Shown piece after piece: positions 3,099 through 19,898 of a DNA stretch of 64,000 nt; the first letter of the stretch is position 1; each line of letters begins with the position of its first letter. The notes beneath the pieces are model-generated. The model had not been told where the DNA came from and searched no databases. It saw only the letters and a list, made by a program, of their open reading frames with translations. The stretch is taken from positions 1 to 64,000 of the IMG/VR virus record IMGVR_UViG_3300028299_000003, one strand, 5' to 3'. The position numbers and the translations under genes were made by a program. Source of the DNA: a virus.

Positions 3099-4284
3099 TT
3101 AATATTTTTTTGTACATTTCTCTTCTTTTATTATTAACAACATCCATTTCATATCTATCAACAACTTTTTCATATAGTTTTTCACCCATATCTATTATCG
3201 CTGATGGATTTTCATGAAACCATTTCATTTTCTCATACCACATATTTGGTTTTGATTCATCAATCAAAAATCCATCTACACCATCCTCAATATCAATTGT
3301 ATATGGGCCATAATTACTCGCGATTATTGGGCATTTGTATATTCCCGCTTCTATTACTTTTAGTTGACTTTTATAATAGTTAAATAAACTATTATTTTTT
3401 AATGGTGACAACACAACATCCGCTTCGTGGTACATTGTACCATATGTTAATATTGGTTTTGTCCATCTTCTTTGATAAAATTCTTGTCTGAATTCTTCAA
3501 CTATACCATAGTTTTCATCACTAAATGTATTTAGATATTGTCTATGTTGCTCGTTTTTTAACCATTTACCACCATTTGTGAAAATATGTTCAAAGAATGA
3601 CCATTGATTTGATTTTGGATCACTTTTTATTATACCCTTTGGTGTCCTAACTCTTAGGTCAAAACCACATAAATATAATTGACAATCTTCTAAAAAGTCT
3701 TTATCAAACATTTCAAATGATTTTTTCATTAACCTAAGATCAGGCATATGACTTATACCACCACCCCAAAGAAATCTTATTTTATCTGAAGGTATTTTAT
3801 TTTCAACTCTCCACTGATATTCATCCTTGTTCAACGCGTTCTCCATAACAAAAACATTTTTATTTAATTCCTCAATTCTTTTCGCGAAAAGAGGTGTTGT
3901 TGTAGTTACATAATGAGCTGATTTTATCAGCCCTTCCATCATTTGTTGAGCGTTAGATTTTTTCCATCCTGAATAATTCAAATGTGAACTACTTAATATC
4001 CAATAGTCATCTATATCCCATACTATTCTTATATTATATTTATTTACAATTTCTTCAAACGCTTTACCATATTCTGGTTTACTGAAATTAATAACCTTAT
4101 TGTAAAATACAATGTTAAAATTACTCAAATATCTTTCATCTGCTAAGTTTAATGTATGATCGCTCAACATTCTTATTTCTACATCAATATCATCATACAT
4201 CATATGACTATGTGGATTTAGTATGCGATAGTAGCCAATACCATCTACATCGGCTGTTAGAGCTAGAATTTTCGGTTTTATCAT
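3088..4284 (-). CDS. GT-B fold (family 4-like) glycosyltransferase
   Basis: GYYR..P, WDIDD, and KSQLKVIEAG..PIIAS..PY...GVDGFL motifs. Confidence 0.8.
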   Translation of the reverse strand: MIKPKILALTADVDGIGYYRILNPHSHMMYDDIDVEIRMLSDHTLNLADERYLSNFNIVFYNKVINFSKPEYGKAFEEIVNKYNIRIVWDIDDYWILSSSHLNYSGWKKSNAQQMMEGLIKSAHYVTTTTPLFAKRIEELNKNVFVMENALNKDEYQWRVENKIPSDKIRFLWGGGISHMPDLRLMKKSFEMFDKDFLEDCQLYLCGFDLRVRTPKGIIKSDPKSNQWSFFEHIFTNGGKWLKNEQHRQYLNTFSDENYGIVEEFRQEFYQRRWTKPILTYGTMYHEADVVLSPLKNNSLFNYYKSQLKVIEAGIYKCPIIASNYGPYTIDIEDGVDGFLIDESKPNMWYEKMKWFHENPSAIIDMGEKLYEKVVDRYEMDVVNNKRREMYKKILSDE

Positions 4285-13279: not shown

Positions 13280-14185
13280 TGGAATGAGACTACTTCCACT
13301 TCTGACTGATACCTTCATTGTATTATCCCTTTGACTCCCATCAGAGGGTTCTCAATTTGTCCACATCCACCAGGGATGTCTATCAGCGACGCTGCCGTTT
13401 TATAGTTGGTGACTCAACTTTTACCATCAATCATATTCAACTTTCCGAATACCCTCTGCTTTCGGGGCAGTTCGTGGCCGCTAGACCACTAGGTGCATCT
13501 TTCAATCAAATTCATCCGTCTTGGGAACTTCAGAACTCTCGGTTCACCCGTAGGTGCTAAGAATTAAGCGACTTTCAGATTGATGTTGAGTGGGCCTTTC
13601 CATTTGATAACAAAATGCAGGAATTGAACCTACGTTTTTTATTTAAGCGATAAATGCCTTACCACTAGGCAAATTTTGTTAGTCCACCAAGAAGTGCCCA
13701 CTCAGCTGTTCTATATCCTTTTGAGATATAAAATTCAACACTTCTCATGCGTTTCGGGCTACCGACCCTACTGTGCGGTTCTTCAAGAATCCTGACCCCT
13801 CGTTCTACCAAGGAATCATTCACCTCTGGAACTATTAGATAGCCATCACGTTGGTCTGCTTTGACAGTCTAATCACTCCTTATCCAATCAGATGTATCAA
13901 TCGGCTGACGAATGGCGTTGGGTGTCACCCCATATTAGAGAAGCTCCTTACCCATTGCCGTGACAATGGGGGCTTACCTCTCGTATTCTTCCCACAGAAC
14001 CATAACCGATTTTCCACCTTAGTTCCACCGAAGTGAAACCCGCCACTGGGATGCGTTAGGATGAAGTTTGCTTGGATGAACTACCCGAAAGTAGCAGGAG
14101 ATTGTGAACATTTACTCCTCTTTTACACCTTACGATGTATTATCCTTTATCCCCCGAAGGGGAAAACTTCCCAAACAAAGTTAAT
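13280..14185 (-). ncRNA. Large structured ncRNA, probably GOLLD-like (ends approximate)
   Basis: ~900 nt, markedly GC-richer than the flanks, no credible ORF; several UUCG/GNRA-capped hairpins on the - strand; own promoter; lies between tRNA genes; 3' end GTGGAT..ATAATAC..AAGG..GTAGTCTCA recalls GOLLD (from memory, not searched). Confidence 0.65.
13609..13680 (-). other. tRNA-like domain (CUU loop, G at position 33) embedded in the large ncRNA
   Basis: ACAAAAT TT GCCT-AGTGGTA-AGGC A TTTAT-CGCTTAA-ATAAA AAAC GTAGG-TTCAATT-CCTGC ATTTTGT; enclosed by the TGAGTGGGC/GCCCACTCA helix. Confidence 0.7.
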
Positions 14186-16084: not shown

Positions 16085-16393
16085 CTAATTTTCATTTTCT
16101 TTTTTTCCTTTCTTACATATAGGACATACTACAACTTGTTGTAAGGTTATGGAATCTATATCTACAATAATATAACCTTTATTATTACAATTTGCACATC
16201 TAAATTTGTTATATTTACACATAACAATATTCATTTCTTCTTTATAACTAGGAATGTGTCTATTATCACATGCTCTGTCACCAATCATACCAAATCCAAA
16301 ACATTTTTTAACATCATTTTTAGATAGAGTACACACTCTACAAATTCCATTAATTCGTTCTTCTTGGGTATGAGGTTTCATTTCATTCATCAA
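16085..16393 (-). CDS. Cys-rich hypothetical protein
   Basis: CANCNNKG...CPIC. Confidence 0.55.
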   Translation of the reverse strand: MMNEMKPHTQEERINGICRVCTLSKNDVKKCFGFGMIGDRACDNRHIPSYKEEMNIVMCKYNKFRCANCNNKGYIIVDIDSITLQQVVVCPICKKGKKENEN

Positions 16394-17156
16394 TATATTT
16401 TTTTAACTTTTCAAATTCATTTTCAACAAATTCATTATTCTCTCTACCCATATCCTTTATTACATATGGAATATATCCACAGTTTTTAATTTCTTTTATT
16501 TTAATTCTATCTCTATTTTTCACTTGTTTAATTGAATGTTTTTCTTTTATTTTTTCATAATGCCATTTTCCATTCCACAATATCGCTATTTTATAATCTT
16601 CTATTATTATATCAGCGTCCCATCCATTAAAAATTGATTCATTAGTTTTAATATTATTAAAATATTCTTTACATAATTCAGAAAAATATATTTCATTTTT
16701 ACTTCTTCTATTCTGATTTAGAACTGAGGCTCTACCACCCTTTATTGCTTTATCTATATTATTTTTATTTGAATATGTTATAGAACACTTGTTAGAACAA
16801 AAAATTCTATTTTCAGTTATTCTATGCTCAAATATTTTATTACAATATTTACAAATTGTACTTATTCTTTTAATATGATTTCTACCAATCAATGACTCAC
16901 TTTTCTTTTTCTTATCATCATCATCCCAATCTCTACTATTGGCACAACTTCTAGAACAATAATATTTTTCTTTTTTAGGAAAAAGTTTTTCTCTTTCCTC
17001 TATTTCAAATTCCTTTTTACAATTATTACAAGTAACTATAAATTTTTTGAATTCACCATACTTTTTATTAACATATCCACCTTGGTGTATATTTTGACAA
17101 GAAGTATTACAATATTTATTTTTTACAGGTTTTCCACAATTTAAACATTTATTCAT
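16383..17156 (-). CDS. Putative homing endonuclease (Zn-ribbon repeats plus Vsr/PD-(D/E)xK-like domain)
   Basis: CxxC...YCSxxC repeats; SKNE, ADIII..KIAILWNGKWHY...RDRIK. Confidence 0.7.
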   Translation of the reverse strand: MNKCLNCGKPVKNKYCNTSCQNIHQGGYVNKKYGEFKKFIVTCNNCKKEFEIEEREKLFPKKEKYYCSRSCANSRDWDDDDKKKKSESLIGRNHIKRISTICKYCNKIFEHRITENRIFCSNKCSITYSNKNNIDKAIKGGRASVLNQNRRSKNEIYFSELCKEYFNNIKTNESIFNGWDADIIIEDYKIAILWNGKWHYEKIKEKHSIKQVKNRDRIKIKEIKNCGYIPYVIKDMGRENNEFVENEFEKLKKYIDE

Positions 17157-17391: not shown

Positions 17392-17690
17392 CGGCCCGTG
17401 TAGGATTCGAACCTACGACCAACAGATTACACATTATCCATAATTTTCATTACGGGGTGGACTATATCATCATCTCTACTGAGATGTCGGACGCTATTAA
17501 AGGTTTATTGATTGATTTTCTCACCTTTTAGTCTCTGCACCTTCCCAAATACTCTTATAATCTTCTCTGGGCTTGGATCAGGATTGCCATATTAAAGGTT
17601 TCCCTGAGTTCATCCGATTTTCCATATGTGGTCACCCACATACGCTGCAATCTTTACAGTCTGCTGCTCTACCAGCTGAGCTAACGAGCC
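17392..17690 (-). tRNA. tRNA-Asn(GUU), intron-containing
   Basis: Exons 17690-17656 and 17429-17392 join to GCAGA-CT GTT AA-TCTGT; G73. Confidence 0.9.
17430..17655 (-). ncRNA. Group I intron (226 nt, no ORF) between anticodon positions 35 and 36
   Basis: P1 CUGU^AA/UUGCAG with U.G at the splice site; core AATCCTGA, GCAGAGACTA and GATATAGTCC; terminal G. Confidence 0.9.
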
Positions 17691-17710
17691 ATTATTTCAA
17701 AGAACAATTG

Positions 17711-17870: not shown

Positions 17871-17945
17871 CGGTGACGACCAGATTTGAACTGGCGATCT
17901 CCTGAGTGACAGTCAGGAATGTTAGGCCATCTACACCACGTCACC
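17871..17945 (-). tRNA. tRNA-Asp(GUC)
   Basis: CCTGA-CT GTC AC-TCAGG; G73. Confidence 0.93.
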
Positions 17946-18400
17946 TTATTTTAACCATTTTCTTATTGCGTTATCACTTACACCATATTTTCTTCCTGTT
18001 CCTTTATATCCAAGTTCTTCAATATCTTTTAATAGTGTTTCTTTATCAGGTCTTTCTACTTTTCTTTGTTTTAAATCTGCACATTTTTTACATCTTTTTG
18101 ATTGTCTATCTTTTTTGTTGCCACATTTACAATAATAATTTCCATTATAGAATCCATAATTATTTTTTATATTTTTTGCACCATGTGTGTCTAAAGTTAC
18201 ATTACAATTTGGACAAACAATTCTTAAATTTTCTAATCTATTATCATCATTTATACCATTAATATGATCCAATACAAATATTAATTTTTTCCCCATCCAT
18301 TCTTCATCTTGACCACAAATTTCACATTTTTTTTCTTTCAATCCTTCATAGAATTCTTAACAATATTAGTAAAATGATTTTCTTCATATCTATTTTGCAT
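17946..18400 (-). pseudogene. HNH homing endonuclease, internally deleted or frameshifted
   Basis: LDHINGINDDNRLENLRIVCPNC; the ATG at 18400 (MQNRYEEN...) is out of frame with the HNH part; much shorter than its paralogue at 19043. Confidence 0.65.
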
Positions 18401-18471
18401 ATTCTTTTTTATTTGTATATTAAAATCTGAATACCAAAAACTGTCAATTAAATCAAAGAACGTCTTTTTTG

Positions 18472-18548
18472 TTGGGAAGGTGGGATTTGAACCCACATGT
18501 GACCAGTTACCGTTTCAACACTTTATAAGAGTGAGCGGATACATCCCA
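18472..18548 (-). tRNA. Non-canonical tRNA-Ile(UAU)-like, D-loop 3' of the anticodon arm
   Basis: TGGGATG TAT CCG CT CACT-CT TAT AA-AGTG TTGAAA CGG TAACTGG TCACAT GTGGG-TTCAAAT-CCCAC CTTCCCA A. Confidence 0.72.
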
Positions 18549-18560
18549 GTTTTTATATTG

Positions 18561-18710
18561 TTAGTGTGAGTGGATACGATGAATTGAATTTGTCGGATTG
18601 GGTGGGGTCGAACCACCATGTAACCAATTAACCTTTCAACTGCTTATCAGGCAGAGGGTTTACAATCCGTTTTGTTAGAGAATCACTCTAACCAATTGAG
18701 CTACACACCC
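18561..18710 (-). pseudogene. Disrupted canonical tRNA gene (probably Ile) split by the non-canonical tRNA-Ile(GAU)
   Basis: 5' half GGGTGTG TA GCTC AATTGGTTA GAGT G ATTCT CT (18710-18677) and 3' remnant ATCCACT CACACTA A (~18575-18561). Confidence 0.65.
18593..18669 (-). tRNA. Non-canonical tRNA-Ile(GAU)-like, D-loop 3' of the anticodon arm
   Basis: CGGATTG TA AACC CT CTGC-CT GAT AA-GCAG TTGAAA GGTT AATTGG TTACAT GGTGG-TTCGACC-CCACC CAATCCG A. Confidence 0.75.
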
Positions 18711-18715
18711 GTTTG

Positions 18716-18798
18716 TGACCGAAGTGGGAATCGAACCCACATGAGCTTAGCTCAAAGGTTTTTAAGACCTTCGCGTCTGCCAGTTCCGCCATTCAGCC
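18716..18798 (-). tRNA. tRNA-Leu(UAA)
   Basis: AAGGT-CT TAA AA-ACCTT, long variable arm. Confidence 0.93.
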
Positions 18799-18815
18799 AA
18801 TTTTATTTCAATACG

Positions 18816-18863
18816 TCAAAGAACCATTTTACAAATTTACAAAATTATTTCCACATTTCCAAC
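18816..18863 (-). promoter_or_regulatory. Possible internal promoter plus boxA in the tRNA operon
   Basis: TAAATTTG (18839-18832) with imperfect -33 GTTG, followed by GTTCTTTGA. Confidence 0.45.
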
Positions 18864-18880
18864 TTTTCAACAAATTTTTG

Positions 18881-18957
18881 CGGTCCCAAAGGGATTCGAA
18901 CCCTTCTGTTATTCCTCCGTGACAGGGAGGTAGCCACACCCAGCAACTCCTGAGACC
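18881..18957 (-). tRNA. tRNA-Asp(GUC), atypical D-arm and variable loop
   Basis: CCTCC-CT GTC AC-GGAGG; G8G9, no A14, 8-nt variable region; G73. Confidence 0.82.
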
Positions 18958-18969
18958 AATCAATTTTTG

Positions 18970-19052
18970 TGACCAAGGTGGGACTCGAACCCACAAGTTC
19001 TGTGAACGATAGGTTCTAAACCTATTATGTTTTCCAATTTCATCACTTGGCC
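18970..19052 (-). tRNA. tRNA-Leu(UAG)
   Basis: ATAGG-TT TAG AA-CCTAT, long variable arm. Confidence 0.92.
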
Positions 19053-19717
19053 TTCTCGTAATTTTTTTTCCATTTTCTTATACTATTATCACTCACTCCG
19101 TATTTTCTTCCTGTTCCTCTATATCCAAATTCTTTTATTTCTTTTAATAATTTATCATAAGATGGTCTTTTTACTTTTCTTTGTTTTAATTTTGAACAAT
19201 CCATACAATATTTACTATTTTCTTGTTTTTTATTTCCACACTCACATTTCTGTTGTGGATTTTTATTTATTTTTGATTTTTGATTTAAACTCTTACAATA
19301 TGTATTTGTTTGAGCGTGACAATTTGGACAAAGTATTTGAATATTATTAAATTCATTATTAAATCTATTGCCATCTATATGATGAATTTCTAATGGTGCA
19401 TCTTTATTATTCCATTCGGTAAGATTACAAATTTCACATTTTTTTTCTTTATATCCATCCATTATTAATTTTTTTCTCAGTGTGTTGCTACTTATTAATG
19501 ACCCGTTAAATAAATATTTAGAAACATGTTTTCTATTATTTGATATTTTTTTACCCTTTAATCCCATATTGCCATTATATTCAATATTCATTTTTTTCAA
19601 ATATCCATTTAATGTTGATTGTCTACATATAAGTTCTTTACAAATGAAAGATTTTGGTTGATTATCATTTATCCATTCTAATATCTCTTCTTTTTTTTCT
19701 AATATATCTTTTCTCAT
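19043..19717 (-). CDS. HNH homing endonuclease
   Basis: CEIC...LEIHHIDGNRFNNEFNNIQILCPNCH; C-terminal HTH; likely start MRKDILEK at 19717; stop lies inside tRNA-Leu(UAG). Confidence 0.85.
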   Translation of the reverse strand: MRKDILEKKEEILEWINDNQPKSFICKELICRQSTLNGYLKKMNIEYNGNMGLKGKKISNNRKHVSKYLFNGSLISSNTLRKKLIMDGYKEKKCEICNLTEWNNKDAPLEIHHIDGNRFNNEFNNIQILCPNCHAQTNTYCKSLNQKSKINKNPQQKCECGNKKQENSKYCMDCSKLKQRKVKRPSYDKLLKEIKEFGYRGTGRKYGVSDNSIRKWKKNYEKAK

Positions 19718-19821
19718 CTTTTTTTTTATTTTATATATTAAAAATAAAAAGTCAAAAATGGTAAACACCATAATTATTTTTATAATATGTATATTATTTT
19801 AATTATTTCAAAGAACTTATG

Positions 19822-19898
19822 TACCGATGGCTGGATTCGAACCAGCGACGTGTAGTGATTATGATTCACTTGCGATAGCCAACTCCGCCCACATCGGT
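19822..19898 (-). tRNA. tRNA-Met(CAU) (or Ile2), atypical D-arm
   Basis: AGTGA-AT CAT AA-TCACT; ACCGATG/CATCGGT acceptor. Confidence 0.82.

Follow-up and report, generated by a model that had tools for sequence, protein, structure and literature searches.

A probable tandem block of isoleucine-type tRNA genes, two of them truncated beside intact rewired ones, in a phage tRNA operon

In T4 the free-standing homing endonuclease SegB, whose gene lies in the tRNA gene cluster, recognizes a motif of tRNA genes (in the T-arm) and drives the inheritance of the tRNA region (PMC2330249). The SegB gene and its neighboring tRNA genes replace markers of related phages (PMC2330249; PMC13096335), and in T6 SegB-driven amplification produces repeat units whose nuclease gene is truncated (PMC13096335). 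Other described systems also bear on tRNA genes that are broken or built unusually: group I introns with nuclease genes interrupt tRNA anticodon loops after a U (PMC3984707), integrating elements leave partial tRNA genes at attL and attR beside an intact gene of the same kind, where they are easily taken for parts of one gene (PMC9897764), and tRNAs without a D arm occur as mitochondrial tRNA-Ser(AGY) and in nematodes (PMC7609411).

The locus analyzed here resembles each of these systems in part. As with SegB, nuclease genes lie among phage tRNA genes, one of the HNH genes of the array being truncated and lying beside tRNA remnants, and the tRNA gene present in a slot varies between relatives; however, the enzymes are HNH rather than GIY-YIG proteins and their cleavage is presumed, the remnants are 5' stubs ending at the anticodon loop, and the intact genes beside them have a non-canonical architecture. 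The stubs break off in the anticodon loop after a U, as at the group I introns, an example of which lies in the same operon (17438-17666), but they have no intron core or 3' exon behind them. Like the fragments of integrating elements they are partial genes beside intact ones of the same kind; whereas the fragments that integrases make are as a rule duplicated 3' parts on either side of an insert of kilobases, these are 5' parts that lie one tRNA gene apart, and no integrase was seen. Both intact genes lack a D hairpin in the usual place, as D-arm-less tRNAs do, but in the phage family a D-stem partner and a D-loop-like AAnTGGTnA are retained and lie on the other side of the anticodon arm, 3' of it.

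The DNA analyzed (the window, 64,000 nucleotides) is the first 64 kb of the 76.6-kb IMG/VR record IMGVR_UViG_3300028299_000003, for which CheckV gives a completeness of 11%. The G+C content of the window is 26.6%, and a long tRNA array lies on its minus strand. We assign the 150-base stretch at 18561-18710 to a block in which four isoleucine-type tRNA genes follow one another in tandem within a phage tRNA operon, two truncated Ile genes (stub A and stub B) standing beside intact rewired ones, and give this explanation a probability of about 0.6. On the minus strand the order runs from tRNA-Leu(UAA) through stub A, the rewired Ile(GAU) gene, stub B and the rewired Ile(UAU) gene to an HNH gene without its N-terminal part, an order that follows from reading the letters behind the rewired Ile(GAU) gene, previously taken for a canonical 3' end, as the front of a second, rewired gene. 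The features are as follows.

18715..18798, minus strand: tRNA-Leu(UAA), the upstream neighbor (ARAGORN; Rfam 53.4 bits), ending in discriminator A and CAAAC.
18677..18710, minus strand: stub A, positions 1-33 of a canonical tRNA, with acceptor 5' strand, full D arm, anticodon-stem 5' strand and C32 U33 (3'-truncated Rfam match; 25/25 identity to contig L029).
18674..18692, minus strand: 7-bp inverted repeat GTTAGAG / CTCTAAC with loop TGATT, across the break of stub A (repeat search; within the minimum free energy fold).
18670..18676, minus strand: AACAAAA, an A plus the discriminator-and-trailer motif (A CAAAA), at the joint of stub A with the next gene (sequence).
18593..18669, minus strand: intact rewired tRNA-Ile(GAU), 77 nt (Rfam tRNA 28.9 bits; family model R1 95.5 bits; family covariation).
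18584..18592, minus strand: trailer and spacer CAAATTCAA, 3' of the rewired Ile(GAU) gene (sequence).
18563..18583, minus strand: stub B, TTCATCG TA TCCA CT CACA CT, putatively positions 1-21 of a rewired (UAU-type) gene (15-mer match to contig L026).
18549..18562, minus strand: AACAATATAAAAAC, an A, the trailer-like A CAATA and a spacer, at the joint of stub B with the next gene (sequence; motif statistics).
18472..18548, minus strand: intact rewired tRNA-Ile(UAU), 77 nt (Rfam tRNA 31 bits; R1 96.8 bits).
17946..18341, minus strand: HNH endonuclease gene, with the N-terminal ~100 residues of the family missing (phrog_10822 positions 100-243 of 245, E 2.6e-27; Pfam HNH).

The two intact genes of the block are members of a family of rewired tRNA-Ile. 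A conserved-core pattern retrieved 22 IMG/VR loci, and by blastn 82 Streptomyces phages proved to carry this RNA without annotation, at 84% identity. There are 18 distinct sequences, each of 77 nt and each with the anticodon GAU or UAU. Four helices show covariation (92.5% of cells paired; 14/20 pairs changed on both sides), including a 3-bp helix of positions 11-13 with 37-39, and the D-stem partner and the D-loop-like motif lie 3' of the anticodon arm, the latter as AATTGGTTA in the rewired Ile(GAU) gene of the window. Both window copies match the family over the full 77 nt (alignment A1, model R1), with 95.5 bits at 18593-18669 and 96.8 bits at 18472-18548, and ARAGORN misses the intact rewired genes. 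Scanning one genome each for 185,579 prokaryote species with the core pattern gave 10 matches, five of them true members, all within phage-like tRNA arrays of MAG bins. This covariation argues that the rewired family is real, and no description of a rewired phage tRNA-Ile, or of a D arm relocated in this manner, turned up in the body of literature searched.

Stub A is the canonical member of the block. The earlier note on this DNA had described a clean canonical 5' half here, and this part of it was confirmed: the minus strand at 18710-18677 reads GGGTGTG TA GCTC AATTGGTTA GAGT G ATTCT CT. Cut out (18710-18672), the piece aligns to positions 1-37 of 71 of the Rfam tRNA model RF00005 as a 3'-truncated match (20.4 bits, E 0.009), with an acceptor 5' strand and a D arm (D stem GCTC/GAGT), while ARAGORN calls no tRNA at 18710-18677. 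In a metagenome scan its first 25 nt (18710-18686), the part covered by this comparison, proved identical (25/25) to the intact canonical tRNA-Ile(GAU) of L029 (823-897, called by ARAGORN, acceptor 3' strand CATACCC). The same 25-mer also begins tRNA(CAU) in unrelated, G+C-richer contigs (L028, L030, L031), and a 21-mer D-arm motif was rejected as proof of Ile identity, being common to phage tRNAs CAU, GAU, UAU, UCC, GUG, GUC and others; since, in addition, the anticodon cannot be read from the stub, Ile(GAU) is only our best guess for its identity. A 26-mer that includes the window's own anticodon stem had no match in IMG/VR by exact-pattern scan, and an apparent homology of the 16 nt after GAG to the spacer of L021 was discarded as weak (161/2000 shuffles). 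Nothing survives of the canonical gene's 3' part. Between 18676 and 18549 there is no AGAAT-type anticodon-stem partner, and the only T arm is that of the rewired gene; an orphan T arm sought across 12-21 kb was not found, nor was a distant 3' exon or matching 3' half anywhere in the window.

The earlier note had seen that 3' part on the far side of the rewired Ile(GAU) gene, in the letters ATCCACT-CACACTA-A taken as T stem and acceptor 3' strand, and had the rewired tRNA sitting inside a destroyed canonical one. Under that anatomy the rewired Ile(GAU) gene was inserted into a canonical Ile gene, replacing positions 34-58, and ATCCACT CACACTA A survives downstream; GGGTGTG...CT would once have run on into an ordinary anticodon stem and a T arm that closes with ...ATCCACTCACAC(CC)A, and the canonical gene would end ...ATCCACTCACACCCA. 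The letters do exist (18575-18561), CACACTA pairs with GGGTGTG at 6/7 positions (five Watson-Crick pairs and one G-U, with one mismatch) in register with TCC and the discriminator A, and bacterial tRNA-Ile(GAU) often ends ...TCCACTC..., which counts for the nested arrangement. However, this complementarity is at chance level, as 0.11 7-mers pairing so well with GGGTGTG are expected in the 44-nt spacer, or 2.3 with G-U pairs counted fully, and four are present. Nor does the spacer show similarity to the 3' half of the canonical tRNA of L029, and ahead of the supposed 3' end there is no T arm, neither a T-stem 5' strand nor a T loop.

The same letters fit the rewired family far better, and this match speaks against a canonical 3' half. 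G TA TCCA CT CACA CT (18577-18563) agrees at 14/15 positions with positions 7-21 of the rewired member in L026, the local alignment reading GTATCCACTCAC(A/T)CT, and none of 2000 shuffles reaches its score. Among 127,410 control 15-mers taken elsewhere in the window, none scored above 12/15 against the rewired family. In a repeat search 18577-18558 came out as a direct repeat of the 5' part of the rewired Ile(UAU) gene, at 80% over 20 nt, and every family-invariant base up to position 21 is kept (T8, A9, C12, C14, T15, C16, C20 and T21), whereas positions 22-77, with the anticodon, TTGAAA, the D-loop-like motif and the T arm, are absent. The 15-mer test was used because stub B is too short for profile methods, giving 1.8 bits with the family covariance model in truncated mode and a window-wide E of 3.7 with a short nhmmer profile; the evidence concerns about 15-21 nt, of which positions 7-21 are the solid part. 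Exact-pattern scans returned only L013 and L026 for TATCCACTCACNCTTATA, besides three chance matches in coding DNA, and 33 matches for TATCCNCTCNNNCTAACAA, all apparently chance and outside any tRNA gene. On the strength of the 14/15 match, the control 15-mers, the invariant bases, the missing T arm and the chance-level pairing, we identify 18577-18563 as part of stub B: the letters once read as T stem and acceptor would be positions 7-21 of a second truncated gene, of the rewired type. That the rewired tRNA is nested in a canonical gene is accordingly very unlikely.

The last letters of each stub are CT, which correspond to C32 U33 in the anticodon loop; AACAA comes next, and both stubs are joined to A+ACAA(A/T)A. 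The discriminator with a trailer CA(A/T)A or CAAAA follows 13/15 tRNAs of the array, and ACA(A/T)A, with a background of 0.0044 per position in the window, is present one base after CT in both stubs. As each stub is joined to the discriminator-plus-trailer motif of the array, the simplest reading would be a gene without about positions 34-72 that has retained its trailer and its place, so that the array has kept its gene-trailer-gene rhythm. A matching intact state is found in L029, where a canonical Ile(GAU) gene is followed by discriminator A, the 5-nt CAAAT and a rewired GAU tRNA of a second subtype. Stub A has G1 and would be expected to continue with C72, yet an A is found, and both stubs carry the full 7-nt loop-like CTAACAA, so that the break may lie behind position 38 of an altered loop instead of at U33. 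The earlier note had the 5' half stop exactly at U33; as stub A lacks the 3' strand of the anticodon stem, it may end there or after CTAACAA.

Without a T arm and an acceptor 3' strand the stubs can yield no tRNA. We consider them probably the dead remnants of redundant Ile genes: stub A would be a canonical GAU copy adjoining the rewired GAU gene, and stub B an additional copy, of the UAU type, adjoining the rewired UAU gene. Each would have been stripped of the part that begins with the anticodon and runs through the acceptor stem (about positions 34-72) while keeping the trailer, either by repair of DNA breaks or by replacement with incoming tRNA-plus-nuclease DNA, in an array rich in homing endonucleases; in more general terms, a deletion in a nuclease-rich tRNA array may be the cause. 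The shared structural end point of the two stubs is the one feature still calling for explanation, and it may point to a break within the anticodon loop or close beside it.

Relatives bear on how canonical and rewired genes replace one another. Between L029 and L021, homology (78% over 766 nt) reaches to within 4 nt of a slot and resumes downstream of it. In L029 the slot holds the canonical Ile(GAU) gene, in L021 a rewired Ile(GAU) gene (4121-4197; 94% identical to the window copy) together with an ORF of roughly 1 kb (312-327 aa) with NUMOD3-like repeats and weak endonuclease matches, for which PDB sequences and NCBIfam gave nothing clear. Judged from these flanks, canonical and rewired Ile(GAU) appear to be positional alternates in the two relatives, at a locus other than the window's own and with only weak endonuclease signals in the L021 ORF. 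Intact canonical and rewired Ile genes stand side by side in L008, L029 and L070; since L008 and L070 carry both forms, the two are not mutually exclusive, and the selection against the canonical form proposed by the earlier note is not borne out. Its suggestion that the variant displaced the ordinary Ile gene in place survives in part: the canonical stub beside a rewired gene, along with the slot swap between L029 and L021, supports the loss of a canonical gene (best guess Ile(GAU)) beside its rewired GAU equivalent, but not the nesting. The contigs were also searched for an intact canonical gene at the syntenic locus, as had been advised, and none of those found carries this very locus intact; the ancestral order given here is therefore a reconstruction.

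The slot region of L021 and L029 holds further elements. Ahead of the Ile slot lies a tRNA-shaped element that ARAGORN does not call (L021:4008-4077, L029:710-779), whose T loop is TGCGATT, whose acceptor stem pairs poorly and whose anticodon loop varies (CTGATAA in L021, CAGTTAA in L029). Just upstream of the tRNA slot, a 125-aa ORF (L021:3551-3928, L029:~290-690) looks, from its sequence, like ribosomal protein bL7/L12. Directly after the canonical or rewired Ile gene comes the second subtype of rewired tRNA(GAU) (L029:903-990, L021:5180-5262), which keeps the acceptor, TA, CCAG/CCGA, the anticodon arm CTGATAA and an AATTGG-like motif while its linkers differ, with no TTGAAA and a longer 3' connector; further UAU variants lie at L021:5269-5347 and L029:1253-1328. 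Elsewhere in the family, the rewired tRNA-Ile(GAU) of Streptomyces phage Mildred21 (L001:967-1580) lies ~14 nt after a gene annotated as tRNA nucleotidyltransferase. In L016 (980-1005) and in L018, which has the same sequence, AATTGTGAGCGGATA stands just upstream of the rewired tRNA; it looks identical to 15 nt of the lac operator, and in reverse complement it is similar to positions 8-19 of rewired tRNAs of the UAU type. This likeness is probably a coincidence or an operator.

The window likewise contains elements of interest outside the block. A GOLLD RNA match at 13281-13746 scores 147.4 bits (gathering score 150) and has a tRNA-like element embedded within it. A recurring minus-strand motif GTTCTTTGA(A/T)(A/T)T, which we take to be boxA-like, occurs at 18453-18461, about 19815-19823 and about 17697-17705, that is, after the rewired UAU gene, after tRNA-Met and before the intron-bearing tRNA. 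The motif is found directly 3' of the rewired gene in L021 (4200-4212), and it also closes the bL12-like ORF in L021 and L029.

The array is furnished with nuclease genes. Two ORFs, 17946-18341 and 19043-19771, encode HNH endonucleases (E 1e-27 to 1e-28 for phrog_10822; a Pfam HNH match close to the cut-off), and a third ORF, 16383-17156, has weaker HNH matches. The shorter protein (131 aa) corresponds to residues 105-236 of its 242-aa paralog at 49% identity, and no N-terminal remnant is left upstream of its ORF, so that stub A, stub B and this HNH gene form a row of three truncated genes. The stop codon of the shorter ORF directly adjoins tRNA-Asp(GUC), whose start is at 17945 (17945-17948), and that of the 242-aa ORF lies within the first 10 nt of tRNA-Leu(UAG) (19043-19052). 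Ending at a tRNA gene in both cases, the paralogs look like nuclease-plus-tRNA units; the genes they abut are Leu(UAG) and Asp(GUC), not Ile genes, and we infer a link between them and the Ile stubs. In the 412-kb phage L006, a same-family HNH gene lies 300 nt downstream of a rewired Ile(UAU) gene.

The suspicion of an assembly chimera was dispelled by contigs from other lake samples, X3 covering 18472-18900 and X6 covering 18534-18774, both without a difference, although the runs may stem from one sampling campaign. A contig from an RNA library (metatranscriptome) covers 18447-18781, also without a difference, and may represent a precursor transcript or DNA carry-over. Apparent joints of 18499 to 18772 and of 18741 to 18686 in the read comparison turned out to be T-arm and D-arm look-alikes of other organisms and not variants of the locus.

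Other explanations of the stubs were considered. An exon that meets a group I intron usually closes with U, as both stubs do (U33), and AACAA follows in each; the stubs could be the 5' exons of Ile genes that once had a group I intron (with a nuclease gene) at 33/34, AACAA being the intron start, from which the remainder and the 3' exon were later deleted. The intron in another tRNA gene of the operon (17438-17666; Rfam RF00028, 96 bits) lends this some appeal, as do phage tRNA fronts interrupted in the anticodon loop elsewhere: a tRNA(CAU) in L033 (1069-1102) that is broken right after CT and intact in sister contigs, and a tRNA(CUG) front in L056 (2381-2480) that passes at once into an ORF with an HNH motif, both likely intron or nuclease insertions. 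However, the intron at 17438-17666 is the only RF00028 match, with no intron core or 3' exon near the stubs, AACAA(A/T)A is the ordinary tRNA trailer motif of the array, two further deletions would be required, each ending exactly at the next gene, and none of the Ile genes found, rewired or canonical, carries such an intron, all of which makes an intron origin unlikely. If instead the stubs were kept for a function, as a processing or regulatory hairpin in the precursor RNA or as decoy 5' tRNA halves, the 7-mer CTAACAA at the same structural place in both, the 7-bp hairpin of stub A and the RNA-library contig spanning the entire block would be accounted for. Against this, CTAACAA shows no enrichment (12 copies in the window against 11.95 expected), stubs of this kind are missing at the 24 loci where other members of the family were inspected, the contig from the RNA library could be DNA carry-over or unprocessed precursor, and the fold of the whole stretch is no stabler than shuffles (155 nt, z -1.32), a value that also leaves a composite single-RNA structure of 155 nt unsupported; a retained function is quite unlikely in our view.

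An origin at the RNA level, in which the 34-73 piece was lost by cuts of an anticodon nuclease and RNase Z, followed by ligation and reverse transcription, is hardly credible. As for the earlier note's example of homing-endonuclease cleavage at the anticodon, we infer it at most from the context described above. A more specific proposal, that the stubs mark the cut site of a DNA endonuclease recognizing the anticodon-loop region of Ile tRNA genes, perhaps one of the array's HNH family, which drives replacement of the resident Ile tRNA genes, whether canonical or rewired, by cut-resistant rewired copies, seems doubtful. If true, such an endonuclease gene drive would explain how an 84%-identical architecture comes to be shared by high-GC Streptomyces phages and a 27%-GC huge lake phage.

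The tandem block that we favor corrects the picture of a tRNA within a tRNA, which was attractive and wrong. It also carries a warning for annotation, as ARAGORN misses the intact rewired genes and the stubs can be mistaken for parts of genes. The array, with its two clear HNH genes and its two stubs of the same structural end, offers a testable lead on the remodeling of phage tRNA sets. A canonical Ile-type gene that has decayed beside its rewired equivalent, and a slot that holds the canonical gene in one relative and the rewired gene in another, provide natural evidence of rewired Ile tRNAs standing in for ordinary ones.
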